Assembly: GCA_964533375.1 (NCBI GenBank)
Contig: CAZHLW010000003.1
Location: 17,823-81,822 of the forward strand
Origin: an uncultured Candidatus Peribacteria bacterium
GTDB lineage: Bacteria > Patescibacteriota > Gracilibacteria > Peribacterales > Peribacteraceae
Direction: 5' to 3'
Length of the DNA: 64,000 bases
The notes beneath the pieces are model-generated. The model searched no databases and was not told the DNA's origin. It saw only the letters and a program-made list of their open reading frames with translations. A program made the translations under genes and the position numbers. Shown here in pieces: positions 14,722 through 58,851 of this stretch; position 1 is the first letter of the stretch; every line of letters starts with the position of its first letter.

Positions 14722-14730
14722 GGGAGGGGG

Positions 14731-15474: not shown

Positions 15475-15479
15475 AAGGA

Positions 15480-18982: not shown

Positions 18983-19033
18983 GAGGAAACTGACTATAGC
19001 AGCTGTACGCGGAAGGCAGAGAGGCGATAGAGT

Positions 19034-20785: not shown

Positions 20786-20793
20786 TCACGCTG

Positions 20794-26316: not shown

Positions 26317-26348
26317 AGGAATGGAGGTAATGAAGTACCCTATACTGC

Positions 26349-26380
26349 CAGAAAAGGCGGATCTTGGGAACCCGCCTTCG
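26349..26380 (-). terminator. Hairpin (possible attenuating terminator) after the DsbA-like gene
   Basis: Minus-strand AAGGCGG-gttcccaagat-CCGCCTT followed by TTCTGG, lying between 26402 and the start at 26316. Confidence 0.4.
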
Positions 26381-26401
26381 AGAAACAGTCCTTTTAGGCG
26401 G

Positions 26402-27169: not shown

Positions 27170-27225
27170 AGATAATAAGGGGTAGGTCTTGATGGTAGAG
27201 GGAGCGGAAGCTGGGAGCAAGAATT

Positions 27226-27360
27226 GCCTCACCCCCGACCCCTCTCCATACCCCAACCGCACGCCGCTGGAGAGGGGAGCAGTTTTTCATTCTATAAAGA
27301 AAGCCAGTTCCCCTCTCCCGTTGGAATCCAGGCGGCAGGGAGAGGGGCTAGGGGTGAGGC
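27226..27360. repeat. Nested inverted repeats (G/C-rich GGAGAGGGG / CCCCTCTCC arms)
   Basis: Outer arms are GCCTCACCCCCGACCCCTCTCC (27226-27247) and GGGAGAGGGGCTAGGGGTGAGGC (27338-27360). Inner arms are GGAGAGGGGA (about 27269-27278) and TCCCCTCTCC (27309-27318). It lies in the divergent spacer between the DsbA-like gene and lysS. Confidence 0.75.
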
Positions 27361-30884: not shown

Positions 30885-31741
30885 AGAGCCCTGGAATCAG
30901 CATCGTCATCTGCACGCATAACCCGACAGAAACCTTTGAGCAGGCGCTTGCGAGTGTGGACAGATTGGAGAACCGGGACCAGACCGAAATTCTGGTGATT
31001 GAAAACGCGTGTCATGCCGCATCAAAAGAAAAGATACATATACTTTTGAAAGACCGGCCGTGGATACGGTTGATTGAGGAACCGACGCTCGGGCTGTCTG
31101 TTGCGCGAAACCGCGGTCTACGCGAAGCGCGGGCACCGGTTGTCGGATTTATCGATGACGATGCGGAACTATCGCCACAATGGGGACATGTGATACTTGA
31201 TACGTTTGCCAGACACCCCGAAGCGGGTGCGGTGGGAGGAAAAGTGGTTCTGGAGTATCTGTCGCCTCCACCGGCTTTTTTGACGGATCTGCACCGGTTG
31301 TACCTTGGATGGTTCGATTGCGGACCGGAGGAAAAAATTCTGTCATTTCCCGACTGTCCGCGCGGCTGCAATATGGCATTCCGCACAGAAGCACTGTCTG
31401 CTGTCGACAGCTTTTCGCCGTGGCTGGGAAAAATCGGCGACAGTCTGGCGTGCTTCGAGGAAATTGATCTCTGCCAGCGCCTGATGCAAGCCGGATGGAT
31501 CAGTCTGTACCAACCCGATGCAGTGGTAACACATCTGATTGAAGCATTCCGCTATCAGCCGGACTGGTTTGTACAAAGAACCTACGAACAGGGGAAATCC
31601 GTGCGGATTTTTGAGCGCCTTGCGGGTTCCTTCTTCCCGTCACCCGCATCTCTGCGGCGCCTGTGTAGTAGCGGCCGACTCGAACGGCTCTTCGCACGCG
31701 GTTACCTGGCGGGGTGCAGGGCAAAATTGCACACGAGATAG
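30881..31741 (+). CDS. Glycosyltransferase family 2
   Basis: Internal ATG overlapping the upstream stop (ATGA), giving 287 aa. ISIVICTHN...LVIENAC...GFIDDDA (DxD). Confidence 0.75.
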   Translation: MKSPGISIVICTHNPTETFEQALASVDRLENRDQTEILVIENACHAASKEKIHILLKDRPWIRLIEEPTLGLSVARNRGLREARAPVVGFIDDDAELSPQWGHVILDTFARHPEAGAVGGKVVLEYLSPPPAFLTDLHRLYLGWFDCGPEEKILSFPDCPRGCNMAFRTEALSAVDSFSPWLGKIGDSLACFEEIDLCQRLMQAGWISLYQPDAVVTHLIEAFRYQPDWFVQRTYEQGKSVRIFERLAGSFFPSPASLRRLCSSGRLERLFARGYLAGCRAKLHTR

Positions 31742-31788
31742 CTGCTGTTTTCATTGGCAGGCCATGTGCTATTCTTCGCCTCCTGCCT

Positions 31789-34191
31789 ATGGATCGCTTC
31801 TGGTTCTCCGTCATCCGGCCCTGTCTGTCCTTTATCGGGGCGCGTGTAATTGCGGAAATCGGGACAGGGAAAGGAGACACTGCCGTTCTTGCGGCGGATT
31901 TCTGCAGGGAACACGGTGCACGCTTTCATACTATTGATACGGCTCCGGCGTTGGATGTGCGTGTTTTTGAGGAAACCCATGCCCCGTACATCACCTGTTA
32001 CCGCGGACGCAGTCTGGATATTTTGCCACACATTCCAACCTACGATGCCATCCTGATAGATGGCGATCACAACTGGTACAGCGTGTTCCATGAACTGGAG
32101 CTTGTCGAACGCCGGCGGCGCGAAACCGATGTGCAGTGCATGGTCTTTCTGCATGATACCGGCTGGCCATATGGACGGCGGGACCTGTACTACGACATCA
32201 CTCTCATCCCGGAAGAATTCCGGCAGGAATCGGAAGTAGCGGGTATCGATCCCGCAACGGATACGCTCTCGCCTGTCGGTTTCAATGCAAGACTGCGGCA
32301 TGCGAAAAAGGCAGGTGGCGACCGGAACGGCGTCCTGACGGCGGTAGAGGATTTTCTGCGCTCTCATCTCGACTGGCAGATTGTGACCGTACCGGGTTTC
32401 TTCGGCCTGAGCATTCTGATCCCCCAGCCGCTTTTAGATGCCTATCCGGATTTTTTGCGGTTTTTGGAACTGATCGTTCCCTCAGAAGAAATGGAGGAAC
32501 ATCTGAAAGAAATCGAGGCAGATAGAATCGTCCATCTTGCGCTATCGCAATCGGTACGGAAAACGAACGATGCCTTGCTGACACAGCTGGAAGAAAAAAA
32601 TATACACATCCGGGAACTGTCAGAGGCAAAAAAAACAGACCCTGCGGAAGAACAGGCAATTGCACAATTGAGGCATATGGAAAGCACGCTGAGCTGGAAA
32701 ATAACGGCACCTCTGCGTATTGCCGGGGCACTACTGCGACGGGATCTGTCTGTCTATAGCGACATGTGGGTACGGATGGGCAGGCCGTTTCCGCGAACCA
32801 TGCGTTTCCTCCGGCACAGACTGCTGGGTGCATTTTTGCCTGCAACGGTTGTAAGTATCCCGCAGCAGATGGTATCGGACACGGCGGTCATTGTCGTTTG
32901 TCCGGAGACGGCTATGTATCTTCCGGATACGCTCGACAGCCTGCTCAATCAGAGCCGGCGCCCCGCGGATATCCTGGTTGTCCGGACAAGTGACGTGCGG
33001 GACGATGTGACGGGCGTCCTGCTTCCCTATCTGGATAAAGGAGTCCGTTTTCTGCAGAGCGGATTTACGACGGCGCTTGCCGCAGCACGTGCCGGAATCA
33101 GCGCGACTACCAGCGGTTTCATCGTGTTTATGGAGAGCGGCGATCTGCTGCACCGCGATTTTGTGGAGTGCAACGAGCTGCTGCTTCTGGAGAATCCCTC
33201 GACAGGTATTGCTATGAGCGATGTCCGTCTCTTTGGCGCACAGAGGGGCTACAGACGCGCACCGGATACCGCAGATACCCATGCACCGCTGTCCATGGAA
33301 AGCCGCCCGCGAAACGGCATCATGATCCGGCGGGAAGCGCTGGAGCAGGCGCGGGGCTGGCCCATGGATCAAAAACAATCGGTCTGGAACGAAATACTGC
33401 AACTGGGATTTCGCGTGCAGCGTAGTATGGGTCTGTACCTGAAACGGGCGACTGCTACAGATATTTTCGCCGACAGCGCGCCGCACAATGCTCTTCTACC
33501 CGCAACGCTCTGTTTGTCTTTAAGCGGACGCAGCTGGGCCTGGCCACTCACAAGCTCCTTTCTGGAAACTCAAACCTATCCCCACGCACTCATCCATCTG
33601 GTGATTGTGGATACGGCGGATGATGCCGCGTTTTCCGCAGTCGTCCGGCGTTGGCTCTCGAGTTGCGACTACCGCAGCGTGACGTATAAAACACTGCGGA
33701 CAGGGCAGAAGGGGCTGGCGGATCTGCCACGTGAAACTGTTGCAAAAGACGTGAGCATTGCCTGTTCCGCTATCTACAATACCTTCGCGCGCACGATCGA
33801 TACACCTCTCGTCTTCACATTGGAGGACGATGTCATTCCACCGCAGGATGCATTCGTGCATTTAAGCACACTGATGACTGGCGACGTGTTGTCTGCTTCC
33901 GCGCTTTACTGGCACCGCGACAAAAAGCAGCCCGTCTGCTGGATCTGGGATCGCGGCGGTCCGGCGTTCCCGGAAAAAGGACACGGCGTGCAGGAGATTG
34001 GCGGAACGGGATTCGGGTGTCTGGCCATCCGCGGAGATGTTTTCCGTAGTACTGTTTTCCAGAGCGGACAGCCGTTTGGAAATTACGATCATAATTTCTT
34101 CGCTCTTCATACGCTCAAAGATTCCAGAACAGCCGTGATCGACTGGGACTGCGTGTGCCGCCATTACCAATCCCCCGACGTATGGTTCTAA
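31789..34191 (+). CDS. Multidomain enzyme: N-terminal class I methyltransferase-like domain, coiled coil, two GT2-like domains
   Basis: About 800 aa from the ATG at 31789; the track ORF starts at a GTG at 31714. Segments: VIAEIGTGKGDT...AILIDGDHNWYSV...FLHDTGWPY; then the coiled coil EEMEEHLKEIEADR...LEEKNIHIRELSEAKK; then AVIVVCPE...LLNQSRRPADILVV and LCLSLSGR...THLVIVDTADD. Confidence 0.6.
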   Translation: MDRFWFSVIRPCLSFIGARVIAEIGTGKGDTAVLAADFCREHGARFHTIDTAPALDVRVFEETHAPYITCYRGRSLDILPHIPTYDAILIDGDHNWYSVFHELELVERRRRETDVQCMVFLHDTGWPYGRRDLYYDITLIPEEFRQESEVAGIDPATDTLSPVGFNARLRHAKKAGGDRNGVLTAVEDFLRSHLDWQIVTVPGFFGLSILIPQPLLDAYPDFLRFLELIVPSEEMEEHLKEIEADRIVHLALSQSVRKTNDALLTQLEEKNIHIRELSEAKKTDPAEEQAIAQLRHMESTLSWKITAPLRIAGALLRRDLSVYSDMWVRMGRPFPRTMRFLRHRLLGAFLPATVVSIPQQMVSDTAVIVVCPETAMYLPDTLDSLLNQSRRPADILVVRTSDVRDDVTGVLLPYLDKGVRFLQSGFTTALAAARAGISATTSGFIVFMESGDLLHRDFVECNELLLLENPSTGIAMSDVRLFGAQRGYRRAPDTADTHAPLSMESRPRNGIMIRREALEQARGWPMDQKQSVWNEILQLGFRVQRSMGLYLKRATATDIFADSAPHNALLPATLCLSLSGRSWAWPLTSSFLETQTYPHALIHLVIVDTADDAAFSAVVRRWLSSCDYRSVTYKTLRTGQKGLADLPRETVAKDVSIACSAIYNTFARTIDTPLVFTLEDDVIPPQDAFVHLSTLMTGDVLSASALYWHRDKKQPVCWIWDRGGPAFPEKGHGVQEIGGTGFGCLAIRGDVFRSTVFQSGQPFGNYDHNFFALHTLKDSRTAVIDWDCVCRHYQSPDVWF

Positions 34192-35084
34192 ATGATGATC
34201 ACCGGCCGCGCATTCTGCTGATTGTGGATATTCCGAATTGGGCTTTCCACACACTGGCACGCGCCATCCAGTCGGGACTCGCCCACCGCTTCCGGTGCGA
34301 TATCATGATCGGATCGCAACTTGCCGCTTTTGACGAAACTGACTACGACCTGATTCATGTGTTCTTTGAAATGGAGCGCAACCATCTGCCATATGTCCAT
34401 GGAAAGACACGCATTCTGAAGAGTGTCTACAGCCATTACTGGCAGCAGTGGGGTATGAGCGTGGCGGATTTTTACAAGACACATCTGCGTGAGGCGCATG
34501 CCGTCTGCGTCCCGAGTGCCTTGCTTGCCGACGCTCTCCGGGAACTGCCGGTACCGGTTTCCATTGCACCCGAAGGAGTGGATACATCGTTCTTTACGCC
34601 CGCTGGGATAAAACGCGAAGGGCCACTGGTAGTCGGCTGGGCGGGACATCCGAACCGGTCCATCAAACGCCTCGAATGGATGAAGGCAGCTACGGACGAC
34701 CTCTGCGAATTACGGCTGACAAACGGGCTGCTGTCACCGGAGGAAATGCGTGAATTTTACAGAAGCGTGGACATCATTGCCTGCAGTTCGATTGCGGAAG
34801 GTGCGCCGCGCCCTCTTATGGAAGGCATGTCGTGCGGACTCTTCCCGCTCAGCTTCGATGTGGGGATTGCAGGGGAACTTATCAACGGAAACCGCAACGG
34901 CTACCTGGTGCAGAACAACACTATTGAAGGACTGCGGAGCGCCGTGGAATGGTGTGTGGAGCATCCGGACAAAATCCGCGATACCGCTTTCCTGAACAGA
35001 AACATCGCAATCGCGCGGCGCGACTGGCGCGTGACGCTCCCTGCACAGGAGCACATTTACGATACTATACTGGCAACGCGGTAG
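34182..35084 (+). CDS. Glycosyltransferase, GT-B fold (GT4-like)
   Basis: Internal ATG giving about 300 aa (RILLIVDIPNWAF...VVGWAGHPN...IACSSIAEGAPRPLMEGMSCG.FPL). Confidence 0.6.
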   Translation: MVLNDDHRPRILLIVDIPNWAFHTLARAIQSGLAHRFRCDIMIGSQLAAFDETDYDLIHVFFEMERNHLPYVHGKTRILKSVYSHYWQQWGMSVADFYKTHLREAHAVCVPSALLADALRELPVPVSIAPEGVDTSFFTPAGIKREGPLVVGWAGHPNRSIKRLEWMKAATDDLCELRLTNGLLSPEEMREFYRSVDIIACSSIAEGAPRPLMEGMSCGLFPLSFDVGIAGELINGNRNGYLVQNNTIEGLRSAVEWCVEHPDKIRDTAFLNRNIAIARRDWRVTLPAQEHIYDTILATR

Positions 35085-35772
35085 CGGGAGCCGCCATTCT
35101 GCCGTGGTTCATGTGCACAATACGGTCGGTAAATCTGCCAAGCTCATCAAAATCATGACTGACGAGTACCGCTGTTTTTCCCTGTGCTCTGAGCGCACGC
35201 AAATGCTCTTTGCACTTTTCCTGGAAATCCGCATCGCCGACAGCAAGAATTTCATCGAACAGATACAGATCACGATCGACTTGTGCCGCAGCCGCAAACG
35301 CCAGGCGCAGACGCATACCGGTGCTGTAGCATTTGAGCGGTAAGTCGAGCGCGGATTCTATACCTGCAAAGTTGATGATACGATCGGTCATCGCACGGAT
35401 CTCCTTTCGTGAATAGCCCTGCAGCAAGCCATGAAGATAGATATTTTCTTCCGCTCTGCGTTCCGGATGAAACCCGATCCCCAGTTCAAAAAAACAGGAG
35501 AGTGATCCGTGAAGGCTGACAGTTCCGGTATCCGGACGGAGGAGTCCTCCCAGAATGCGCAGCATCGTGGTTTTTCCGGACCCGTTGGGACCGTACATTC
35601 CCACCCACTCGCCGCGCCGGACGGACAGTGATGACGGAAAAAGCGCATTCACTGTGGTTGTTTTGCGCTGCAGACGCCACTTGAGCAACCGGTCCTGCAG
35701 AAGCACAGACGAAATCATCGACCGTTCATAGGTTTTGGAAACGCCGTCGGCTGCAAGCACAATATCGTTCAT
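35065..35772 (-). CDS. ABC transporter ATP-binding protein (Wzt/TagH-type polysaccharide exporter)
   Basis: 235 aa. Walker A GPNGSGKTT, signature YSTGMRLRL, Walker B LYLFDE. No C-terminal glycan-binding extension. Confidence 0.85.
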   Translation of the reverse strand: MNDIVLAADGVSKTYERSMISSVLLQDRLLKWRLQRKTTTVNALFPSSLSVRRGEWVGMYGPNGSGKTTMLRILGGLLRPDTGTVSLHGSLSCFFELGIGFHPERRAEENIYLHGLLQGYSRKEIRAMTDRIINFAGIESALDLPLKCYSTGMRLRLAFAAAAQVDRDLYLFDEILAVGDADFQEKCKEHLRALRAQGKTAVLVSHDFDELGRFTDRIVHMNHGRMAAPATALPV

Positions 35773-36614
35773 CAGTATTCTTCAATGAAATGAGGACTCC
35801 TGCGCAGGTAAATCCAGACGCCAAAGCCAAAAATTAACAGACAGACTGCGGTAAATCCTGCCGCATGGACAATGCTTGGCATGCCCTGTGTCGCCGGATA
35901 CAGAAACACCCGGTGCGCATCGTGCATCAGAATCGACATCGGCTGGAAATGGACAACCGCATCGAATGCATCACGCACGGATGAAATACCCGGATCGCCC
36001 AGACGTGATAGAAAAGCCTGACCGATGGGCTGATGCACATTGTACGCATAGGTAATGGGTGTCAGCCAGAAGAGAATCTGCGTGGCAATCCCCCACAGAT
36101 GATGAATATCGCGGTAGCGCAGACAGTACGCACACAGAATCATACCGACGCCCAGGGAGAGCAGTGTCATCTGCAACAGGAGCAAGGGAATGTACCATTG
36201 CGCCCAGCTCCAGCTGAACCCGGTAAAAAACTGGAAGAGGAAAAAAATCAAAAGATGTGTCAGAAAAATAATCAGATTCGTCCATCCGACCATAAACACA
36301 AGCAGCAGACGTGGAAAAACCATCTGCTGGATAATGGCGGCCTTCTCTTCCAGCATCGACATACAGGCGTTCGTGGTGACTACGAAATGCTCCCAGACGA
36401 TTATTCCCAGAAACAAATAGAACGGATACTCCGGAATGGAATGCTGGAGATACGGACCGATGGCGTAGAGAATAACCAGGAATTTCGCGACCGGACCGAT
36501 GAGCGACCAGAAATACCCGAGTACGGACCCGCGGTACTTCAACACAAAATCCGACCAGCCGACCGCGGCAATGACGGCAAGTGAATGACGGAATGTGAAA
36601 CGTTGTCCGGACAT
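35772..36614 (-). CDS. ABC-2 type transporter permease (Wzm/TagG-type)
   Basis: 280 aa with six hydrophobic segments (KYRGSVLGYFWSLIGP). 1-nt TGATG overlap with the ATPase gene. Confidence 0.8.
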   Translation of the reverse strand: MSGQRFTFRHSLAVIAAVGWSDFVLKYRGSVLGYFWSLIGPVAKFLVILYAIGPYLQHSIPEYPFYLFLGIIVWEHFVVTTNACMSMLEEKAAIIQQMVFPRLLLVFMVGWTNLIIFLTHLLIFFLFQFFTGFSWSWAQWYIPLLLLQMTLLSLGVGMILCAYCLRYRDIHHLWGIATQILFWLTPITYAYNVHQPIGQAFLSRLGDPGISSVRDAFDAVVHFQPMSILMHDAHRVFLYPATQGMPSIVHAAGFTAVCLLIFGFGVWIYLRRSPHFIEEY

Positions 36615-36640
36615 GACTGTATGCTAGCATACCCGCCGAC

Positions 36641-38218
36641 ATGATTGCTTCTTTCCGAGCTTCTTCACCGATGGCCATTGCAGTATTGGGTTCTTTTCTG
36701 ATGGGGATCGCGGCAACCGGTCTGCTCTTTGCAGCGTATCCGTACGGACTCATTGCCCCGGATACGTTTGATTATCTAAAGATGGGACAAAGTCTGTTCC
36801 AGGGAACAGTACCCATGATGGAACAGGCCAGAGGCCCGCTGCTGCCGCTGGCGCTGGCGCTGGCAACGCACACATCGAACCCCGGTGCGGTTATACTGTG
36901 GATGAACGGCATCCTTTTTGCTTTCTGTCTGGCAAGCATCGCATGGATGTGCACGTTCCTGTTCCGGAGAGCGCGCTCTGTGTGGCTGTTCACCGGTCTG
37001 CTGCTGCTCGTAGAAATCCTCATCAATCAGCCATTCATCTATATCTCCTTTGCACTGAACGATGCGCCGGCGGCATTCCTGCTGTGCGCAGGAACCATCC
37101 TGGCAGTCACAGGATGGTACAAACATCTGTCTGCCGCACTGCTGCTTGGTTTTCTTTGTCTGGGTCTGTCGGAAGCCTTCCGTCCCATGATGCTTGTTCC
37201 TTTTTTCTGGGGACTTGCGTGGGTATGGATGTGGCTGCAGCGCAAGCACGCACAGCTCCTCCTGGCAGGCTGTCTGATTGCCCTGTTGCTCCCGATGGGG
37301 ATATGGCATGTCCGCAATGCGGTTATCTACGGAAAAGTGCGATCGAATCCTTTTATTGCCTTTCATCTGATGACCCATGCCGTTGAACTCTGGTCAGAGG
37401 ATGACCGGATTTTTGATGATCCTGTCATAAACACCGCATTCCATACCGCCCTGCGGACAAAAACCCTGCCGGAAGAATACAAGGGTCCTGATTTCTTTTA
37501 TGTCACCATGGAACCATATCGCACCGTGTTTCTGTTTATGAGTTCACAAATGCCGCTTGTGCAAACCCATGGCTGGCAACCTGATGTCATCAGCCTGAAT
37601 ACCTACAGAGAAGAGTTCGCTGCACTGATCATGCGTATTGATCTCCAGACATTCCGCAGGCATCCCGTGAAATATATGTCGGCTGCCTGGCGAAAATACC
37701 AGGAACTCTATAATAATTTTCTGCCCCGCAATTATTTCCAGAGTTTCATGGCAAAGGATAGCAAAACCACCTATGCACGGCAGTCTGCTGCTGATGAAAT
37801 ACCCGTATCCCTCAGAAAAAAATTCCTTCCTGCTGCAGAATGGCAATCATCCGCGCTATCGGATACGGCAGCTTCTTTTCTCTTTGCCCTGTCTCTTCCA
37901 CTGCATATCCGACCGTTTCTTTTCACAGCGGCATCGGGATATTTCCTTGCAGTCCACCTATGTACCGTAGCGGCTCTGGCACTCTTTGTTTCAAAACGAT
38001 TACGGCAGGCTCTGGAACTGGATACCGATACTCACCGTTTTGCCTGGATACTGATGACGGTGTTTTTCCTCACAGCTTTCCTGCATTTTGCTGCCACTGC
38101 ATTTCTGACAGTTCTACAGGATGTCCGCTACAGCAGCCCGGGCGTGATCCCCTGCCAGCTGATACTCTTCCTTGCTGCCAGTCTGCTTTTGCAGCATCTG
38201 TCTTTCCGCAAGAAATAA
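36641..38218 (+). CDS. Polytopic membrane protein, GT-C-fold (ArnT/PMT-like) glycosyltransferase candidate, paralog 1
   Basis: 525 aa with more than 10 hydrophobic segments. The first loop carries an Asp motif (YPYGLIAPDTFDYLKMG). A large soluble loop follows, and C-terminal helices complete the protein. Confidence 0.45.
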   Translation: MIASFRASSPMAIAVLGSFLMGIAATGLLFAAYPYGLIAPDTFDYLKMGQSLFQGTVPMMEQARGPLLPLALALATHTSNPGAVILWMNGILFAFCLASIAWMCTFLFRRARSVWLFTGLLLLVEILINQPFIYISFALNDAPAAFLLCAGTILAVTGWYKHLSAALLLGFLCLGLSEAFRPMMLVPFFWGLAWVWMWLQRKHAQLLLAGCLIALLLPMGIWHVRNAVIYGKVRSNPFIAFHLMTHAVELWSEDDRIFDDPVINTAFHTALRTKTLPEEYKGPDFFYVTMEPYRTVFLFMSSQMPLVQTHGWQPDVISLNTYREEFAALIMRIDLQTFRRHPVKYMSAAWRKYQELYNNFLPRNYFQSFMAKDSKTTYARQSAADEIPVSLRKKFLPAAEWQSSALSDTAASFLFALSLPLHIRPFLFTAASGYFLAVHLCTVAALALFVSKRLRQALELDTDTHRFAWILMTVFFLTAFLHFAATAFLTVLQDVRYSSPGVIPCQLILFLAASLLLQHLSFRKK

Positions 38219-38251
38219 TATCGTTATGAAAAAACTGGTATCCTGCGCGCC

Positions 38252-39853
38252 ATGACATCCGTACGTTTACAACTGACACCTGTTGTTCTCGCCGTGGCGG
38301 CGTCTTTCGCGCTTGGCATACTGGCAACACTCTTGTTGTGGATTGCCTATCCGTACGGACTCATCACTCCGGACAGTTACGATTATCTGCGGGCGGGAGA
38401 GACCATGCTGCACCCCACTGCCGCCCTCTACGACAAATCACGGGGACCGCTCCTCCCGCTATTGCTGGCTCTTCTGACCCATACCCCGTTTCCCGGTGCG
38501 CTTTTGTTGTGGATAAACGGCATTCTTTTTTCCCTGGCAATAGCGGCGGCGGCATGGACGGGCACTCTGGTGTTTAAGAAAGCGGAGGCAGGCTTTCTGT
38601 TGGCATTTATTCTGCTTGCTACCGAACTTCTTTTGAACCAGCCGTTTTTTTATGCCGCCTTTGCTCTGACAGACGGACCTGCTGCCTATCTGCTCTTTGC
38701 GGGAACACTTCTTGCAACGGGAGGATGGTGGCAGAAATCGAAGGCAGCGCTGATTGGAGGATTTCTATGCCTGGGACTATCGGAAGCATTCCGACCGATG
38801 CTTTTGATTGCAGCCCTGTGGGGATGTGCCGGTATAGGAATGTGGCTGTATTGCAATAAACGCGGAGTGCAAAAAAGTATTCTAGCCCTCTGTCTGGCAG
38901 TCCTACTGCTTCCTATTGGGATATGGAACATCCGCAATGCCATTGTCTACAAAAACACGGAGCCTTCGCTGATGGGAGCACACTTACTGTCGCATGCAGC
39001 AACTCTTTGGACAGACGATGAAAAAGTGATCGACGATCCTGTTGCAAACAGCATTCTGCTGGCAAAAAGATGGAGTACCGATTTGCCGCCGCCGTACGAC
39101 GGACCGCGTGTGTTTGGATTATTGCCCCATCCGTCTGACTCCGCCGTCAGATTTTTTGCCTCACAAACACCGACGTACAAAGCCGAAGGATGGCAACCTG
39201 CGCGTATTCCGGCAGAAATATATAGGCAAGAAACACTCATCCTGCTGCTCCCCGTCTCAATCCATACAATCATACGACACCCTTTTGGATATGCACGTCA
39301 GGTTTTGATCGGGTATGCAGAACTCTATGACCGCCATAAAAATGAGGATTATCTGCAGAGCTTCCTGACAGCAAAAGCGAAAGAGACCTACGACCGTCTG
39401 TGGCAAATACAGATTATTCCCGAAAGTCTCAAAGAGACATTCCTGAAACGGGAACGATCCGATCCGCTGAGGACGGCAGCGTTTGCGAGCAGCATCCTGT
39501 GGTCTCTTGCTCTGCCCATCCAATGGCCGGAGGTGATGCGACAGCTCTTTCTTCCCTTTATTCTGCTTGTTCACGCCTGCGGATTACTTGGATGCATGTT
39601 GGCCTTCTCTCCGGTAATGAGGAAGCATCTTGGTGTGCAGGAACGGACTGGAAAAATATTCGCCGTCCTAATGGCAACGTTGTTTTTCACCACAGCGATC
39701 CCCGCGCTCTTCGTCGCATCCATTACACGTATGCTGGAAACACGGTACGCCGCTCCGGGGATGATGCCGTCTCATTTTCTCCTGCTCCTTGCAGCGGGAA
39801 TGCTGCTGTCAAAAATCACGGACAACTGGAAGAACCGGAGTAGTACAAAATAA
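38252..39853 (+). CDS. Polytopic membrane protein, GT-C-fold glycosyltransferase candidate, paralog 2
   Basis: 533 aa, colinear with 36641-38218 (YPYGLITPDSYDYLRAG, RGPLLPLLLAL, LNQPFFYAAFALTDGPAAYLL, GFLCLGLSEAFRPM). Confidence 0.45.
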   Translation: MTSVRLQLTPVVLAVAASFALGILATLLLWIAYPYGLITPDSYDYLRAGETMLHPTAALYDKSRGPLLPLLLALLTHTPFPGALLLWINGILFSLAIAAAAWTGTLVFKKAEAGFLLAFILLATELLLNQPFFYAAFALTDGPAAYLLFAGTLLATGGWWQKSKAALIGGFLCLGLSEAFRPMLLIAALWGCAGIGMWLYCNKRGVQKSILALCLAVLLLPIGIWNIRNAIVYKNTEPSLMGAHLLSHAATLWTDDEKVIDDPVANSILLAKRWSTDLPPPYDGPRVFGLLPHPSDSAVRFFASQTPTYKAEGWQPARIPAEIYRQETLILLLPVSIHTIIRHPFGYARQVLIGYAELYDRHKNEDYLQSFLTAKAKETYDRLWQIQIIPESLKETFLKRERSDPLRTAAFASSILWSLALPIQWPEVMRQLFLPFILLVHACGLLGCMLAFSPVMRKHLGVQERTGKIFAVLMATLFFTTAIPALFVASITRMLETRYAAPGMMPSHFLLLLAAGMLLSKITDNWKNRSSTK

Positions 39854-39860
39854 TAGTGTT

Positions 39861-42773
39861 TTAGACAACCCGGCGGCGGCGCATCCACGCATATCCCGCA
39901 GCCGCACCCGCAGCCATGATGGCTAATGTTGCCGGGCCCGACGCCGTGTTCTCGGGCGGCAGTCCGGTTGTCGGATCGATGACTGTTCCCGTGCCGGATG
40001 TAGCAGACGGCGTTCCGGTTGTCTGTCCCGGCTGGAACGGCAGTTCGATGACGGTGCCGGGAAGGACAGATGGAGATGCGTGCGCAAAGCGGCAAAGTGC
40101 CGTACAGGTCGAACCGGGCTGGCCGTTTTGGGAACCTTCATCACAGAGTTCGAGCGGTGTGTCGACCACGCCGTCACCGCAGCGTCCGAGCGAACAATCG
40201 GGGCGGCACTCCACATTCGGCTGCCAGAGATTTTTAGAACCGTTGTCGCACTCTTCACCGGCATCAATCCGTCCGTTTCCGCAGGCATTGAAGACGACAA
40301 TCGTCGCAGATGATGTTGATGATTCAGTATCTTCACCCGTACCAGACGACACTGACGACATAACTACAGAGAAGGGTACGGATGACCTGCCGGTCACCGG
40401 AACACTGGAAGACTGCCCGATACAACGGAGACACGGCGTCACAGTGTCTGTCACACACACGGCATTCTGCGTTGCGCAGAAATCACTGCCGCCATCTGCA
40501 CATTCGTTCCCTGTGCACATGCCGGTCAGGAACGGCTGGGAGCTGCGTGACGACCGGCTGCTGTTATTCAGCAGATATTTACAGGAGGGGGAGCAGGCAA
40601 AGCGGTTACCCTGATCTTTGAACTGCGGCTCACATTCTTCCCCGCGTTCCGGCTGCAATACGCCATCGCCGCAGAATCCTCCGTTTTGTGTGCAGGTACG
40701 GGAGCAGAGACTGTTTGGCATTCCATTTCTGTTGCCGTTATCACATTCTTCCGATCCTTCGCGCCGTCCGTTGCCGCAGACCGGAACAAATCCGGTGGAT
40801 GAAGACAGCGATACCTCGCTCTCTGCACTGCTGCGCGAGGATGAGCGGCTCGATACGACGCTGGAACTGGACCGGCTGCTACTGGAAGAACTCCTGGAGG
40901 ACGACACAGAGGATACGCGTGAGGAAGAAACGGACGAACGCCTGCTACTACTGACCGACGAAATCCTGGAAGAAGAAACGGAGGAGCGGGAGGAGGATCT
41001 GCCTGAAGAGACGGACGATGCGCGGGAGGAAGAGACCGAAGAGGACCGTAGAGATGAAGATCTATTCGATGATTGTGACGATGCAGAAGACGAGCGGGAG
41101 GAAGTGGAGGAAGACCTGGATGATGACACAGACGATGATAATGATGATTGCGATGAAGACACTGAGGACCTGCTGGAGGACACTGAAGAATGACTGCTTT
41201 GCGAAGAAGACCGCGATGAAGAGACGGAAGAGGCAGATGAGCGAGAGGAAGTGCTGCTCAGGCTGTGTGACGAACCGGATGACACGCTGGAAGAAGACCG
41301 GCTGGAGGATAATGACGATGAGCGTGATGAAGAGACGGAGGATGATCGTGAAGAAGAATGCGAAGAAGTGCTGCTTGCGGAGGAACGGGAGCTGGAACCG
41401 GTCGGACACAGATGTTGTTCCAGCAGTTCTTCAAACGTACAGGGCGTACAGGAGCTGCCATCCGGGAATTCGCTGATCGTGAGGAAATCCTTGCAGGACT
41501 GCGTGCACATCATGTCCTGCGGATCGGTACAGGAAATACAGATATCACGCCGGACACAATCGAGACAGGTATGACCCGCTGTCACACAGGAATCTTCAGG
41601 AGTACTGGCGTTTGACTGGGAATTGCCGGAAGACGCAGCACTGCTTCTGCTGCTGCTTACGCGTGATGACGACCGTGCGGATGATGCGCTGCTTGGCCTG
41701 GATCCGTTGCTGCCGGTACTACCGGTACTGCCTGTTGATCCTGTGCTTCCTGTTGTTCCGGTATCTCCGCCATCCCCTCCCGGATCCCCGCCGGGACCGC
41801 CAGGTCCGCCCGGACCGGAATCAATACCACTCGGTCCTCCGGCTGGAGTGCCGGCTGTTGCATTCCCTGCGGTTGCGTTGGTAGAAAGGGTCCCCGAAGG
41901 GATACCGGCAACGACGCCGGAAGGGGTACCCGCAGGAATACCGGTACCACCACCGCCGCCGGATCTACAAATCGAGTCCGCTTCACCCATACTTTCACTG
42001 CAAGCATAACTCCCCTCATAGTAGCCACGGGGTGAGCATCCCGCTGTTTCCGGATCACATGCGCACTTGGGATCGGTGTTGCCGGGTTCGCATGTCGCAC
42101 AGTTCTGGAAAAGACCGGTACCACATTGCGTGGGAAAGCCATCATCACTGGGATTTCCTTCACAGAAGACACATGCAAGTTTGCCGCACGTTTCCCCGGG
42201 ACTCCGGTACGAAAAATCATGACGGGAATTTGCGCTGTTTGCACAGGTCGGACAGACATCTTCACAACATTGCACGCCGGCCGGACGTGAACATTCACAG
42301 AAAAATCCTCCCGTATCGGCATCGGTACAGGTAAGGCCGGCTTTACACGTTGTCCCCATGGGCATTCCTGAATTGTTCGGACCTCTGAAACAACAGGTGA
42401 AATTACATTTATCGCCTAATTTACCCGGTTGTATGATGCCGGCTTCATCTACCACACACGTAGGGGTATCGGGATCGCAGAAGTTTGTGACAATACACGC
42501 ACCCGCCTGGCAGGTTCCAGCCTGCCCGTTCACATTACATTGTGCATTATTGTTTCTCCGGCATATGCCCGCACCACAGGGATTCGTCGGACCCATATAG
42601 GTATACTCGGGTGGACAGTTGCACTGGTTGTCTATGGGCGATGTCGTACAAACCGTCGTGGGATTTGCCGTAATAATGGCCGTTACCGGCGTCTCTTTCT
42701 GCTGCAACCGCACCGTCACAAAAACCGTGAGTGCAACAAGCGGCAGGAGAATGAAAAGAAAGCGACGATCCAC
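39861..42773 (-). CDS. Giant Cys-rich/Ser-rich modular surface protein, paralog A
   Basis: 970 aa. In order: N-terminal hydrophobic segment, Cys-dense head, Gly/Pro/Thr and Ser-rich spacers, two pairs of CGNG..E..EECDNG / CGDG...E.C repeats, and the C-terminal PPENTASGPATLAIMAAGAAAGYAWMRRRRVV. Confidence 0.8.
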   Translation of the reverse strand: MDRRFLFILLPLVALTVFVTVRLQQKETPVTAIITANPTTVCTTSPIDNQCNCPPEYTYMGPTNPCGAGICRRNNNAQCNVNGQAGTCQAGACIVTNFCDPDTPTCVVDEAGIIQPGKLGDKCNFTCCFRGPNNSGMPMGTTCKAGLTCTDADTGGFFCECSRPAGVQCCEDVCPTCANSANSRHDFSYRSPGETCGKLACVFCEGNPSDDGFPTQCGTGLFQNCATCEPGNTDPKCACDPETAGCSPRGYYEGSYACSESMGEADSICRSGGGGGTGIPAGTPSGVVAGIPSGTLSTNATAGNATAGTPAGGPSGIDSGPGGPGGPGGDPGGDGGDTGTTGSTGSTGSTGSTGSNGSRPSSASSARSSSRVSSSRSSAASSGNSQSNASTPEDSCVTAGHTCLDCVRRDICISCTDPQDMMCTQSCKDFLTISEFPDGSSCTPCTFEELLEQHLCPTGSSSRSSASSTSSHSSSRSSSVSSSRSSSLSSSRSSSSVSSGSSHSLSSTSSRSSASSVSSSRSSSQSSHSSVSSSRSSVSSSQSSLSSSVSSSRSSSTSSRSSSASSQSSNRSSSLRSSSVSSSRASSVSSGRSSSRSSVSSSRISSVSSSRRSSVSSSRVSSVSSSRSSSSSSRSSSSVVSSRSSSRSSAESEVSLSSSTGFVPVCGNGRREGSEECDNGNRNGMPNSLCSRTCTQNGGFCGDGVLQPERGEECEPQFKDQGNRFACSPSCKYLLNNSSRSSRSSQPFLTGMCTGNECADGGSDFCATQNAVCVTDTVTPCLRCIGQSSSVPVTGRSSVPFSVVMSSVSSGTGEDTESSTSSATIVVFNACGNGRIDAGEECDNGSKNLWQPNVECRPDCSLGRCGDGVVDTPLELCDEGSQNGQPGSTCTALCRFAHASPSVLPGTVIELPFQPGQTTGTPSATSGTGTVIDPTTGLPPENTASGPATLAIMAAGAAAGYAWMRRRRVV
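40794..41399 (-). repeat. Ser-rich low-complexity coding tract of paralog A (residues 459-660)
   Basis: About 200 aa of irregular (S3-5-[RVLQT])n. It is mirrored on the plus strand by spurious Asp/Glu-rich ORFs. Confidence 0.85.
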
Positions 42774-42788: not shown

Positions 42789-45700
42789 TTAGAATTTCTT
42801 CCGTCGCATCCACGCAAAGCCCGCTGCAGCTCCTGCAGCCATAATGGCAATGGTGGCGGGACCCGACGCCGTGTTTTCAGGCGGATCGAGCATATCTGCC
42901 GGGATGACATCGACTGTTCCGGTCACCTGTCCCTCCAGAGGATTGTCCGGAGCCGGAGTGAACGGCAGTTCAATTACCGTTGCGGGCAGGACCGACGCAT
43001 CAGACGGCCTGCGGCATAGAGACGTACAGAGCGATCCCAACAATCCGTTTTGTGATCCCAGATCACACAGTTCCAGCGGCGTATCCACTACACCATCCCC
43101 GCAGCGGCCGAATGTGCAGTCCGGACGGCAGAATGCATTGGCACGGACGGAGTTCAGTACGCCATCATCACACTGTTCACCGGGATCGAAGCGCCCGTTG
43201 CCGCAATTGGCCGCGGCAATGAAAACGGCGGAAGAAGCGGATGAAGATCGGCCTGCAAAACTCCGGGAGGATACATTGAAGGATGACGGCCTGAAGGGGG
43301 GTTTAGACGGATCATTGGGAACACAGAGGATGCAGGGAACCGCAGCGTCCTGCACACACGTGGCATCCTGCGCACCGCAGAATTCTGATCCCCCAAGGCT
43401 GCATTCGATGCCGGAACAGATGCCCGGATCTTCCTCGACAACCAAAACCGGGGCAGATGAACGCTGAGAGGAATAGATGTACCGACAACTCTGCGAGCAG
43501 GCGAGCGGCGCATTGTTGGACACAAGCGAGGGTTCGCAATCCTCCCCCAAACGGGCCTGCACAATGCCATCGCCGCATGATGCACGCGTGAAACGGCAGG
43601 CAGTACTGCACAGACTGTTTCTGCCGCCATTCAGGGCGCCGTCATCACATTCTTCGATTCCTTCGCGGCGGTTATTGCCGCAGGTGCTGGTGCGCAAAGA
43701 GGAAGAATGCCCGGAAATAAGGCGGCAGGTATTCGGGTTACAGTTGGAAGCGGGATCTGTCAGGTTGGGTTCGCAGTTTTCCCCGATGAGCGATTCGATG
43801 ATGCCATCACCGCATTCCCCTCCTTCAATTCTGCAGCTGCCGTTACAGCCGTCATCGTTCCGGGTGTTGCCGTCGTCACATTCTTCGCTGCATTCGCGGG
43901 TGCCATTTCCACAAATGTTCATGCAGGAATTTGGGGAAGAAGACGAGTCTGATGCAGGAAACTCAGAACAGCTGATACAGGGCAAATCGCCAATCGCCGT
44001 ACAGAAAGGACGATTCACAGAAGCGCAGAATGCCTGTGCTGCAGGATTGTCGCAGGCAGCGGGATCGCAAAGATTGGACAGACCGGATGACGTACTTCCT
44101 GCAGAGCCGTTGCTGCCGTTTGATCCGCTGGAACCATTTGATCCGGTACTTCCGGTAGATCCATTCGAAGCACCCGAGCCGTTGCTGCCGTTTGATCCGG
44201 CCGAAGAAAGGTTCTGCGTACAAACCTGACAATTACTAAAACCGCAACCCTGCAACGGTCCGCCACAGAAGAGGCCGACGCAGCAGTAGCCAAAAGTTGC
44301 CGACGACACAGAAGACAGGCTGGACGAAGAGCTGGCAGATGATGTGCTGCTTTGGGAGGATATTGATGATGATTGAGACGAGGACTGACTACTGCTCTGG
44401 GAAGATGATTGTGATGATGACACGGACGAAGAGCTGGCGGATGACCTGCTGCTCTGGGAGGAAGAGCGGGACGAAGAAACGGACGATGAAAAACGCGAAG
44501 AGACCGATGATGCGCTACTGCTTTGTGATGACGCCGATGATACGGAAGAGAAGCTACCGGACGATACAGAGGAAGATGAACTGGAAGAAACCGATGAAGA
44601 GCGTGATGCTGAAGAATTGCTGCTTCCTCCGGACGATGATCCTCCGCTGCTGGGACAGGCTGCAGGCTCATTCAAAACCTGCTGCACGGTGCAGGGAGTA
44701 CACGCCGCTCCATCCGGATAGCGGTTGGTGACAATAATATTCGTACAGGATTGTGTGCAGGGATCATTCGGTCCGGCATTGGGGCAAGACACACACGTCT
44801 GTCTGGTTGTACAGTCCGCACAGGCACGGCCGGGTGCTGTACAGTTGATAGAGGATTGTGATGAACTTTGGGATGATACGGACGATGCGGATGATGCAGA
44901 TGACGAACGGGAAGATTGTGAAGAAACCGAGGAAGAGCTGCGGGACGAACTTCTGGAGCTGCTGGCAGATGAACGCGAACTTTGGGATGATGCTGAAGAC
45001 GCACTGCTTGCGCACGGACAGACCGGCACTTGCGTATAGCCGTTTCCCGCTCCACTGCAGGCATCAAAATAATTCACCGTCGCATAATCCTTGCCGGAAT
45101 CCGCGGTCAGTGTCATGGTGTTCGTACCGCCTCCGTCGCAACAGCCGGGGCCTGACCACGTGGTTGTAAATTTTACCTTTCCGCAGCTATCCGCAAAATT
45201 ACAGTCTGTGCTCTCGGTGGTACTGCAGGATCCTGCTGCCAGAAGATCTGCGGATGTTTTCCCCAGAGAGAGATTGATGCTTGTGGCGACCGCGGTGTTC
45301 TGATGAAACGCATTGCCTCCTCCGCCCGCACACGTACAACTCAAAAGCGGTTGTCCCGCAGTACAGACTCCCGATTTACACTGACTTTCCGTTTTGTTCT
45401 GACAGTTATAAGTGCTGCAGGGTGTGTTTTCAGTAACTGCCGGATGCGTGCAGGAACCGCCGGAGCAAATATCATTGGTGCAGGGATTATTGTCATTACA
45501 GTTTGTAGCCTGGTTTTGGGTGGTGCATTGTCCGGAAGACGGTAGCTGTTGGCAGTTACGCGGGAACGTACATCTGCCACCCGAACAAATGTAATCCGCA
45601 GGGCAATCTGCACTGGTGCCACAGGTATGTACCATGGGAAGTTCCGCAATTGCCACACACCGGACAGCAGCCGACACCCCTTTCCAGCAGCCGGGAAAGG

Positions 45701-46181
45701 GATCATAACAAGTGGGAAACCATTCGTATCCAGGATCAATCATCGTATTCGCCCATCCGTTTGTTGCACCGTTCCCCACCTGATTATCACAAATACCGGC
45801 GCAAGATTTTGGAGGGTGTGATGCATTGCATTGCGAATTGGGTCCTCCCAAATCAGTCATTTCTGCTTTATCGAACACCAATCCATATCCCGACGGGCAT
45901 TCAAAATTGTAGGATTCTGTTCCATCCACCGTACATTGTGTACCCGGCGGGCAGTTACAAATATGGGTATACGACCATACCGGCTTTGTGCACCACCCTG
46001 ACGGACTTTGATTGGTGACGGCCTGAGCAGTGAGACTCTTCCCGACGTTCTGCGTCTTTCCGTAGAAAGCCACACACACAAAAAACATCAGAACTCCGGT
46101 TATGAGGAAGCCGTTTTGCCTAGAAGAGAGCAATGCCATGCAAGGCACAATCGTACCGGACCGCTTTGGAAAAAACGACAT
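42789..46181 (-). CDS. Giant Cys-rich/Ser-rich modular surface protein, paralog B
   Basis: 1130 aa with the same plan as paralog A and three pairs of CGNG/CGDG repeats. The C-terminus is PPENTASGPATIAIMAAGAAAGFAWMRRKKF. The start may be the internal MALLSS. Confidence 0.8.
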   Translation of the reverse strand: MSFFPKRSGTIVPCMALLSSRQNGFLITGVLMFFVCVAFYGKTQNVGKSLTAQAVTNQSPSGWCTKPVWSYTHICNCPPGTQCTVDGTESYNFECPSGYGLVFDKAEMTDLGGPNSQCNASHPPKSCAGICDNQVGNGATNGWANTMIDPGYEWFPTCYDPFPGCWKGVSAAVRCVAIAELPMVHTCGTSADCPADYICSGGRCTFPRNCQQLPSSGQCTTQNQATNCNDNNPCTNDICSGGSCTHPAVTENTPCSTYNCQNKTESQCKSGVCTAGQPLLSCTCAGGGGNAFHQNTAVATSINLSLGKTSADLLAAGSCSTTESTDCNFADSCGKVKFTTTWSGPGCCDGGGTNTMTLTADSGKDYATVNYFDACSGAGNGYTQVPVCPCASSASSASSQSSRSSASSSRSSSRSSSSVSSQSSRSSSASSASSVSSQSSSQSSINCTAPGRACADCTTRQTCVSCPNAGPNDPCTQSCTNIIVTNRYPDGAACTPCTVQQVLNEPAACPSSGGSSSGGSSNSSASRSSSVSSSSSSSVSSGSFSSVSSASSQSSSASSVSSRFSSSVSSSRSSSQSSRSSASSSSVSSSQSSSQSSSQSSSQSSSISSQSSTSSASSSSSLSSVSSATFGYCCVGLFCGGPLQGCGFSNCQVCTQNLSSAGSNGSNGSGASNGSTGSTGSNGSSGSNGSNGSAGSTSSGLSNLCDPAACDNPAAQAFCASVNRPFCTAIGDLPCISCSEFPASDSSSSPNSCMNICGNGTRECSEECDDGNTRNDDGCNGSCRIEGGECGDGIIESLIGENCEPNLTDPASNCNPNTCRLISGHSSSLRTSTCGNNRREGIEECDDGALNGGRNSLCSTACRFTRASCGDGIVQARLGEDCEPSLVSNNAPLACSQSCRYIYSSQRSSAPVLVVEEDPGICSGIECSLGGSEFCGAQDATCVQDAAVPCILCVPNDPSKPPFRPSSFNVSSRSFAGRSSSASSAVFIAAANCGNGRFDPGEQCDDGVLNSVRANAFCRPDCTFGRCGDGVVDTPLELCDLGSQNGLLGSLCTSLCRRPSDASVLPATVIELPFTPAPDNPLEGQVTGTVDVIPADMLDPPENTASGPATIAIMAAGAAAGFAWMRRKKF
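44295..44654 (-). repeat. Main Ser-rich tract of paralog B (residues 510-629)
   Basis: Seen directly in the translation. Confidence 0.85.
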
Positions 46182-58813: not shown

Positions 58814-58851
58814 CCCCATAACCGATAACCGGTAACCCATAACCCGTTACG
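58814..58851. repeat. Heptamer array (CCCCATAACC GATAACC GGTAACC CATAACC CGTTAC), direct repeat of 59730-59762
   Basis: It overlaps the stop codon of the SLH gene (58847-58849). About 30 of 32 nt are identical to the right arm of the element at 59663-59763. Confidence 0.75.

Follow-up and report, generated by a model that had tools for sequence, protein, structure and literature searches.

A predicted GT-C membrane protein family beside a polysaccharide export cluster and giant serine-rich proteins in a variable surface island of Candidatus Peribacteria

Introduction

What is the function of two tandem membrane proteins whose genes stand between those for making and exporting a sugar polymer and those for five giant serine-rich proteins? 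The arrangement is present in a 64,000-nucleotide stretch of contig CAZHLW010000003.1 (the window, by which the whole stretch is meant) from an uncultured member of Candidatus Peribacteria (Peregrinibacteria, Candidate Phyla Radiation (CPR)), whose lysyl-tRNA synthetase (LysRS) is 69-85% identical to that of six GTDB Peribacteria metagenome-assembled genomes (MAGs). The two proteins are here termed M1 and M2, their homologs the M family, and the giants A to E (Table 1). CPR bacteria are uncultured and episymbiotic, and the picture of their surface biochemistry is almost blank. Parts of PMC4736985 note the heavy investment of Peribacteria genomes in surface sugars and in large Cys-rich exported proteins.

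The original prediction was of a locus dedicated to glycosylating the adjacent giants, with M1 and M2 reminiscent of glycosyltransferases (GTs) of the GT-C type such as ArnT and PMT. The likeness to GT-C is borne out by the predicted fold, by profile alignment to ArnT and by weak PMT_2 matches in relatives. The dedication to the giants is not established, as adjacency is mixed when relatives are considered and M occurs fused to glycan-modifying enzymes. Comparison with relatives ties M more firmly to sugar-polymer export genes than to the giants.

A membrane protein family with a predicted GT-C fold

Neither M1 nor M2 has a match to any Pfam or NCBIfam family (0 in each) at an E-value of 0.1 or below, and a PDB sequence search was empty, as were family profiles. 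A word-indexed search yielded a single homolog, P0002 (47% identity), which carries the JGI name ‘ArnT-like glycosyltransferase’. Exhaustive HMMER scanning of 1.84 billion representatives (50% identity clusters) gave 91 matches at E<=1e-3, with M2 recovered as P0003; since there are only 91 in so large a set, the family is rare. Pattern searching of GTDB genomes found none, with patterns that were over-strict since L008, a GTDB MAG, carries M. (Loci of relatives are designated L and family proteins P.) Sub-threshold PMT_2 matches are present in 3 of 51 full-length family members and in P0038, so that profile searching gives a hint of PMT_2 in relatives while M1 and M2 themselves reach no GT39, GT83 or ligase threshold.

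With the 51 full-length family members as alignment, AlphaFold2 modeled M1 with a pLDDT of 91.8 and a pTM of 0.92 (an alignment of 3 sequences gave a pLDDT of only 42). The model has ten transmembrane (TM) helices: TM1, a first loop with short helices, TM2 to TM7, then an all-helical soluble domain of ~190 aa (approximately residues 231-423), and three more, the last of which ends the protein apart from a 4-residue tail. In a Foldseek comparison with the PDB the top matches, with probabilities of 0.84-1.0, are almost all GT-C_A enzymes: ArnT (5f15/5ezm), Pmt4, ALG9, STT3, Pmt1/2, EmbB and DPY19. The alignments with the Pmt structures cover 277-285 columns at an rmsd of 6-8 Å, and global TM-scores against GT-C_A structures are ~0.3 because superposition is limited to the N-terminal ~280 residues of M1. 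When the 51-member profile was compared by hhalign with an alignment of Escherichia coli ArnT, the only profile-profile comparison tested, the probability was 88.9% and the E-value 2.4e-6 over 176 columns (M 40-229, ArnT 27-224).

In this alignment D41 of M1 coincides with D31 of ArnT, which is in the PDET motif; D47 and D135 of ArnT pair with position 61 and D141 of M1. The first loop of both M1 and M2 has the motif AYPYGLI(A/T)PD(T/S)(F/Y)DYL, to whose Asp residues attention had been drawn at the outset. The first stands, as column 41 is acidic in all 51 members (D in 33, E in 18), and the second, D44, does not, column 44 being variable (G, S and T are commonest, n=51). T42 is present in 46/51. 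Column 141 is acidic in 51/51 and column 125 in 49/51, while R496 and the pair H341-P342 are invariant. M2 retains all the family-conserved residues: D41, the Asp at 61, R64, E125, D141 and R496 (M1 numbering). The match of the conserved acids to those of ArnT, and their retention in both paralogs, argue for the usual GT-C catalysis, and D41 is a candidate catalytic residue.

Lys and Arg together number 11 in the 29 residues of the predicted cytoplasmic short loops and 3 in 69 external residues. Elsewhere the C-terminus of M is fused to a PEP-dependent pyruvyltransferase or to a SAM-dependent FkbM methyltransferase; these are cytoplasmic enzymes and so the M C-terminus is expected to be inside. 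Given ten TM helices, the loop with D41 and the helical domain would then both be external. The predicted topology is therefore N-in/C-in with the first loop external, as the original prediction would have it.

The fusions merit mention in their own right. In P0010 (L006, 10001-12607) the C-terminal partner is PS_pyruv_trans, and in P0014 (L007, 10001-12223) it is the FkbM methyltransferase. Double proteins of ~1035-1135 aa, with two M units head to tail, are represented by P0008, P0013, P0027 and P0028, and tandem or fused M-M also occurs at L041 and L043. By analogy, the tandem pair and the M-M fusions hint that M1 and M2 may act as a dimer. Dimeric GT-C enzymes have precedent in Pmt1-Pmt2 and EmbA-EmbB.

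From the fold, the ArnT profile alignment, the conserved acidic loop residue and the topology, M1 and M2 are very probably extracytoplasmic GT-C enzymes of the ArnT/PMT kind, and that they are GT-C-fold glycosyltransferases, whatever the acceptor, we hold with high confidence. They are not members of GT83 or GT39, either by sequence thresholds or by domain plan. O-antigen ligase or polymerase identity (Wzy_C, GT-C_B) was considered and rejected; there is no Pfam match to it and no WaaL- or RodA-type fold among the top structural matches.

Genomic contexts of M and of the giants

Most of the contigs compared are fragments, so a gene missing at a locus may still be present in the genome, which limits all that follows on co-occurrence. 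The order in the window, GT-Wzt-Wzm-M-giants, where Wzm and Wzt are the permease and ATPase of an ATP-binding cassette (ABC) exporter, is repeated in L001, L002/L008 and L003/L009 (M 36-47% identical, LysRS 80-87%), which with the window are referred to as the window clade. L007 (LysRS 76%) has the same flanking backbone as the window (LysRS, beta-CASP, RluB, SLH, kinase) and reads GT-Wzt-Wzm followed by the M-FkbM fusion, a 283-aa protein of no assigned family, an epimerase and a methyltransferase, with no giant. The order in L006 is GT-Wzt-Wzm, beta-CASP, the M-pyruvyltransferase fusion, RluB and a giant, so that the giant is one gene from M. More different again is L041, where two M genes are interleaved with GT and methyltransferase genes beside a Wzt and Wzm 68% and 61% identical to those of the window; neither it nor L007 has a Ser-tract protein at the locus. 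In L046 the M gene overlaps a co-directional ABC-2 pair. In L042 its stop codon overlaps the start of a gene for a 241-aa GT2 whose best NCBIfam matches are polyprenyl- or dolichyl-phosphate hexose synthases (AglJ 1e-32, Dol-P-hexose transferase 1e-28, PpgS, PgfS, ArnC), and M is flanked on its other side by a gene whose secreted 300-aa product has a poly-Ser tract. At L045 two M units are fused, with genes for a small GT2, a radical SAM protein and an HTTM protein in the vicinity. In all, M is found with ABC-2 exporter and/or GT genes in five arrangements (window clade, L006, L007, L041 and L046) and with Ser-tract proteins in three (window clade, loosely L006, and L042).

A protein of 283/284 aa is encoded convergently right after M in both L004 (11531-12385, minus strand) and L007 (12205-13056, minus strand), in contexts not related in other respects. 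Identity between the two copies is 57%, while the adjacent M proteins are only ~26-29% identical to M1. Its only family match is a faint one to GT2 (E 0.16), and it is absent from the window. It is possible that it is a partner of M.

Other loci have giants and lack M. In L010 (LysRS 78%) and L020 (76%) the gene right after GT-Wzt-Wzm, at the place taken by M in the window, encodes a giant. In L011, L017 and L021 giants stand beside RluB/beta-CASP with no GT, ABC or M genes nearby, and in L012 and L013 none of the GT, ABC, M or giant genes is present between the anchors. Among the 26 metagenome loci recovered with the C-terminus of the giants, nine of which span 12-21 kb, none has an M gene in the sequence recovered, and several of the giants in these loci are 26-33% Ser. 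Adjacency of M and giants is thus a feature of close relatives (L001, L002/L008, L003/L009; LysRS at least 80% identical) and does not extend to any of the more distant Peribacteria loci examined. M and the giants are separable, and the GT-ABC-M-giant block is a variable island.

As an observation on the island itself, the interval from LysRS to beta-CASP/RluB, which in the window is 27407-57938, is hypervariable in its surface genes, being empty (L012, L013) or filled with GT-ABC, GT-ABC-M, GT-ABC-giants or the full 27-kb block. Its variability agrees with the concentration of strain variation in large surface proteins described in a portion of PMC4736985.

What is the acceptor?

The reading to which we lean, tentatively and with confidence a little short of even, is that M1 and M2 are active-type GT-C_A members that add sugar outside the membrane to a surface polymer exported by Wzm/Wzt, the glycan acceptor being part of the statement. 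The cytoplasmic GT4 and GT2 enzymes would build a glycopolymer on a polyprenyl carrier, with the methyltransferase-GT fusion probably methyl-capping it, and Wzm/Wzt would export the polymer. M1 and M2, possibly as a dimer, would then decorate or extend it from a polyprenyl-phosphate sugar at the outer face. The giants would share the variable cell-surface island with the cluster without being an obligate substrate. The fold class, the conserved acid in an external first loop, the N-in/C-in topology and the recurrent coupling to ABC-2 exporter and GT genes are computational results; the lipid-linked donor, the glycan acceptor and the dimer are all three inferred.

Several features of M commend this scheme. 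Its repeated association with GT and ABC genes speaks for a role in a glycan pathway, its fusions to polysaccharide pyruvyltransferase and FkbM methyltransferase suggest a context of glycan and not of protein, and in L042 its gene is coupled to that of a GT2 resembling polyprenyl-phosphate hexose synthases. Pyruvylated secondary cell-wall polymers are what SLH domains bind; because the pyruvyltransferase fused to M is of the CsaB type and several SLH proteins are encoded in the window, the polymer may be an SLH ligand. Decoration of ABC-exported glycans by GT-C enzymes has precedent in the O-antigen side chains of Klebsiella and Citrobacter, in streptococcal rhamnose polysaccharides with GacL/SccN-type enzymes and in mycobacterial arabinogalactan with Wzm/Wzt plus Emb/Aft (PMC11127046, PMC9574508, PMC8035078).

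Several points weigh on the other side. The Foldseek E-values are weak, at 1e-2 to 1e-1 with none at or below 1e-3, and L004 and L005 carry M alone among housekeeping genes. Within the tightly packed 29.6-39.9 kb cluster of the window there is neither a polyprenyl-phosphate sugar synthase nor a donor flippase; these may be encoded elsewhere in the genome. M adjoins giants in the window clade and, loosely, in L006, and a poly-Ser protein in L042, which keeps a protein acceptor plausible. In L010 and L020, too, GT-ABC clusters stand next to giants though M is absent, and it could be that the exported polymer itself is connected to the giants.

Protein acceptors are the main alternative. That Peribacteria have a surface-protein O-glycosylation of their own, in which the M1/M2 pair puts either single sugars or the exported methyl-capped polymer on the poly-Ser stalks of the giants, is on balance doubtful; if it were so, the Cys-rich adhesin-like giants would have mucin-like glycosylated stalks used for host-cell attachment. 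The form with single sugars from polyprenyl-phosphate donors, placed on the giants and perhaps on other secreted Ser-rich proteins, is one we consider unlikely. It draws on two GT-C paralogs being immediate neighbors of five proteins that have long Ser tracts and a C-terminal anchor, an adjacency shared by L001, L002/L008 and L003/L009 and nearly so by L006; on L042, where M is paired with the GT2 resembling polyprenyl-phosphate hexose synthases next to a poly-Ser secreted protein; and on the presence of the protein O-mannosyltransferases Pmt1/2/4 among the top structural matches. There is also good precedent, as Streptococcus mutans pgf encodes two GT-C enzymes (PgfM1, PgfM2) along with their substrates for glycosylation, Ser/Thr-rich adhesins, and in streptococci disordered regions rich in Ser/Thr are glucosylated by GtrB/PgtC2 (PMC12041528). 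Moreover, Peribacteria have ~8 ‘dolichol-phosphate mannosyltransferase’ genes according to a passage of PMC4736985. However, the adjacency is confined to close relatives with LysRS at least 80% identical, none of the 26 giant loci has M even though very Ser-rich giants are among them, a giant occupies the M position in L010 and L020, and M occurs in L007 and L041, where no Ser-tract protein is encoded at the locus. M or giants could be encoded elsewhere in those genomes, which limits what locus-level co-occurrence can say. The fusions of M to pyruvyl- and methyltransferases are hard to explain on a protein acceptor.

Rather unlikely, too, is that M1 and M2 have another acceptor or are not GTs at all, whether they ligate or anchor a polymer to peptidoglycan or lipid, modify a lipid as ArnT does, or serve as an inert GT-C scaffold. 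In structure and in profile M is closest to ArnT, which modifies a lipid; M can be a lone gene in housekeeping neighborhoods (L004, L005); the window cluster is without donor-synthesis genes; and M has invariant residues of its own (R496, H341-P342) and a helical external domain without counterpart in solved GT-C enzymes. Set against this are the conserved acids that align with those of ArnT and are kept in both paralogs, and the strong association of M, seen repeatedly, with GT and ABC genes.

Very improbable is transfer en bloc of the whole methyl-capped Wzm/Wzt polymer from polyprenyl-diphosphate to Ser of the giants, with M1 and M2 as an oligosaccharyl:protein transferase, for though the parts list of the locus is that of the Geobacillus stearothermophilus slg cluster (PMC2943079) and one model would then cover both the association of M with ABC and GT genes and the GT-ABC clusters beside giants (L010, L020, window clade), the known O-linked en bloc transferases WsaB, PglL and PilO carry Wzy_C (PMC2943079) and M has none, its nearest relatives ArnT and PMT use monophosphate-linked single sugars, L010 and L020 have the same GT-ABC-giant arrangement without M, and in L042 M is paired with a GT2 resembling a monosaccharide-donor synthase.

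The giant proteins

The five giants are 16-23% Ser and 6.6-9.6% Cys overall. Tracts of 100-200 aa that are mostly Ser had been ascribed to each of them, and this holds for A to D, where they are 136-218 aa long and 55-63% Ser: residues 449-666 of A (218 aa, 63%), 503-638 of B (61%), 461-661 of C (55%) and 519-655 of D (60%). The tracts of E are shorter and 37-48% Ser. From its N-terminus giant A has a signal or anchor, Cys-rich modules, the Ser tract, myxo-type disulfide repeats and a C-terminal tail like a sorting signal. B to E have the same plan, and the myxo-type disulfide repeats (TIGR02232/DUF4215) are in all five.

The tail shared by the giants consists of PPxN(T/A)x(S/T)GP, ~17 hydrophobic residues (ATIAIMAAGAAAGYAW) and RRRR. 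It is encoded at 39864-39980, 42792-42900, 46191-46300, 49500-49610 and 52999-53100, and is also present in L001, L006 and L010. Sorting models give generic matches to the TM-plus-Arg part only (PEP-CTERM at 14-19 bits, GVDTG, NPXTG, JDVT), so that the tail could be assigned to no known sorting signal. The tail may, judged by its sequence, be an undescribed CPR sorting motif; neither a sortase nor an exosortase was seen in the window.

Large Cys-rich extracellular proteins have already been described in Candidatus Peribacter riflensis, in part of PMC4736985. Like the giants, the proteins in that account are large, have a signal peptide, are ~7% Cys with weak similarity to Myxococcus Cys-rich repeats, are clustered and vary between strains. 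The keyword-matched passages of PMC4736985 have no mention of Ser tracts, of a sorting-type tail or of neighboring GT-C genes.

The window cluster and its surroundings

The features of the window are listed in Table 1. Both the placement of the tandem paralogs, with the stop codon of M2 just 7 nt (39854-39860) from that of the convergent giant A, and the presence upstream of an ABC-2 exporter pair with GT4-like and GT2 enzymes are as the original prediction had them, the coordinates being confirmed for the former and the families by Pfam for the latter.

Table 1. Features of the window, with coordinates in nucleotides from its first position
Feature	Coordinates	Strand	Remarks
SLH-domain protein	5602-6711		
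SLH-domain protein	25054-26454	-	
DsbA/thioredoxin-like protein	26402-27262	-	Pfam Thioredoxin_4 and DSBA; syntenic in relatives
LysRS	27407-29539		710 aa; GT cluster begins downstream
GT4-type glycosyltransferase	29622-30884	+	Pfam Glyco_trans_1_4, E 1.4e-23; first cluster gene after LysRS
GT2 glycosyltransferase	~30881-31741	+	Pfam Glycos_transf_2, E 3.9e-16
Methyltransferase-GT fusion	31714-34191	+	825 aa; Methyltransf_24, then GT2, then unclassified C-terminal ~230 aa (Pfam)
GT4-type (GT-B) glycosyltransferase	34155-35084	+	Pfam Glycos_transf_1 and Glyco_trans_1_4; 47-49% identity in relatives
Wzt-like ABC ATPase	35065-35772	-	235 aa; Pfam ABC_tran
Wzm-like ABC-2 permease	35772-36614	-	Pfam ABC2_membrane, E 6.7e-9; 50-75% identity in relatives
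M1	36641-38218	+	525 aa; polytopic membrane protein
M2	38252-39853	+	533 aa; tandem paralog of M1, 40% identity
Giant A	39861-42773	-	970 aa; convergent to M2
Giant B	42789-46181	-	1130 aa; paralog of A
Giant C	46188-49439	-	1083 aa; paralog of A
Giant D	49497-52955	-	1152 aa; paralog of A
Giant E	52996-56487	-	1163 aa; paralog of A
SLH-domain protein	58847-59611		

Packing of the genes is extreme. In addition to the 7 nt between M2 and giant A, there are 26 nt between the divergent starts of wzm and M1 (36615-36640) and 33 nt between M1 and M2, the convergent GT4 and wzt genes share 20 nt (35065-35084), and the ATG of the free-standing GT2 overlaps the stop codon of the preceding GT4 gene. 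Promoters and terminators must therefore sit inside coding sequence. A gene for a beta-CASP nuclease follows the five giants.

The best NCBIfam matches of the GT2 enzyme, AglG and HpsE, are under their cut-offs. Those of the ATPase, which is without the C-terminal carbohydrate-binding extension, are galactan Wzt/RfbE (3.9e-43) and teichoic acid TagH, all of them under curated cut-offs, and that of the permease is galactan Wzm/RfbD, at an E-value of 1e-15 that is far under the curated cut-off. By these profile matches the pair belongs to the polysaccharide ABC exporter class, with no specific equivalog assigned.

The 825-aa fusion had been described as a methyltransferase with two GT2 domains, of which the methyltransferase and one GT2 stand; Pfam recognizes only that one GT2 domain, and for the C-terminal ~230 aa (window 33400-34191) there is no Pfam match. 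A counterpart of this last domain is a free-standing gene in L003 (6066-6833). Identity in relatives is 44-51%, an EDD motif is present, and the domain may, on its sequence features, be an unrecognized GT-A-like one. Searching PDB sequences with the whole fusion gave weak generic GT2 matches only.

Outside the cluster, the SLH-domain protein that directly adjoins the DsbA-like oxidoreductase has a C-terminal half of ~12 irregular CYYDxxNRYxCDDDD repeats with an extremely high content of Cys, Asp, Tyr and Asn, and synteny of the pair extends to L001, L008 and L009. The DsbA-like protein likely helps disulfide formation in Cys-rich secreted proteins. A ~200-aa C-terminal extension of LysRS past the class II core is kept in all the Peribacteria relatives found (69-87% full-length identity) and absent from a Gracilibacteria match, where only residues 5-484 aligned. 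The SLH, DsbA and LysRS genes stand between the main cluster and a second group of sugar genes at 16273-23413, which comprises genes for a 284-aa protein of no assigned family, a GDSL-like esterase, a GT4, an SDR, two class I methyltransferases and a WbsX-family protein (E 1e-114). At 62521-63915 (plus strand) is a gene for a secreted protein of 464 aa, helical in its C-terminal half and, in N-terminal parts that contain Cys, rich in Ser, Gly and Asn; it is kept beside the histidine kinase and SLH genes in relatives (L007, 20512-22143; L019, 16545-18119). The open reading frame at 14497-15882 (461 aa) was rejected as a gene, as its translation is of low complexity and not protein-like and it lies opposite a ribosomal protein operon.

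What is new

The giants as a class were already known, from part of PMC4736985, and GT-C enzymes have precedents both next to Wzm/Wzt clusters and next to Ser-rich adhesins. The novelty lies in the M family, with no Pfam or NCBIfam model, a helical external domain after TM7, invariant residues of its own and recurrent pairs and fusions. With a confident model and D41 as candidate residue, the family is ready for addition to family databases. How these cells build the surface with which they contact a host turns on which acceptor M has, a wall polymer or the poly-Ser stalks. Both outcomes would fit a pathway of known type, so the advance is an increment and not a new concept.

Comparison with known systems

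With the group of ArnT (GT83) and PMT_2, M shares the N-terminal module of seven TM helices, the first-loop acid on D31 of ArnT and further acids on D47 and D135, though M1 and M2 are under every Pfam and NCBIfam threshold for ArnT, PMT_2 (PF13231) and PMT (PF02366). ArnT has a C-terminal periplasmic domain; M has instead the helical domain between TM7 and TM8, three more TM helices and a C-terminus inside. The context of ArnT is the arn operon and lipid A, whereas M has no arn genes and its neighbors are Wzm/Wzt, GT4 and GT2 enzymes and giants, in a CPR host with SLH proteins. In PMT (GT39) loop 1 has Asp-Glu, where M has D or E followed by T (T42, 46/51). After TM7 of PMT comes a MIR (beta-trefoil) domain; that of M is all-helical with no MIR match, so that only the position is alike. 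PMT has 11 TM helices and a C-terminus outside, in contrast to the 10 and the inside C-terminus of M.

In the S. mutans Pgf system (PgfS, PgfE, PgfM1, PgfM2) and in GtrB/PgtC2 there are likewise GT-C membrane paralogs, two of them, beside C-terminally anchored Ser/Thr-rich surface proteins, and there the donors of the sugar are undecaprenyl-phosphate sugars used on the outer side of the membrane (PMC12041528). Pgf and PgtC2 are of the YfhO family, to which M has no Pfam match. The Pgf system has a PgfS/GtrB-type synthase and an epimerase, neither of which is in the window cluster; conversely the Wzm/Wzt exporter and polymer-building GTs of the window cluster are absent from Pgf.

The slg clusters of Geobacillus stearothermophilus and Paenibacillus alvei (PMC2943079) have in common with the window wzm/wzt, a WsaE-like fusion, further GTs, a polytopic transferase and an adjacent surface-protein gene. 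WsaE and the 825-aa fusion are similar in having an N-terminal methyltransferase with GT domains, a likeness of architecture. The slg transferase WsaB/WsfB carries Wzy_C, whereas M is ArnT/PMT-like and no Wzy_C protein is among the scanned open reading frames of the window; the rml genes and initiating phosphoglycosyltransferase of slg have no counterpart in the window cluster.

For the decoration of an exported glycan to which we tentatively lean, the comparison is with three-component glycan decoration and with mycobacterial arabinogalactan. A donor synthase and a flippase are two of the three components, both not found in the window cluster. GtrC, GT136, GacL and Emb/Aft have no sequence relation to M, and the external helical domain is particular to M. 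What these systems share with it is the company kept by the GT-C enzyme, which is encoded with genes for glycan synthesis and ABC export, as is M in five arrangements.

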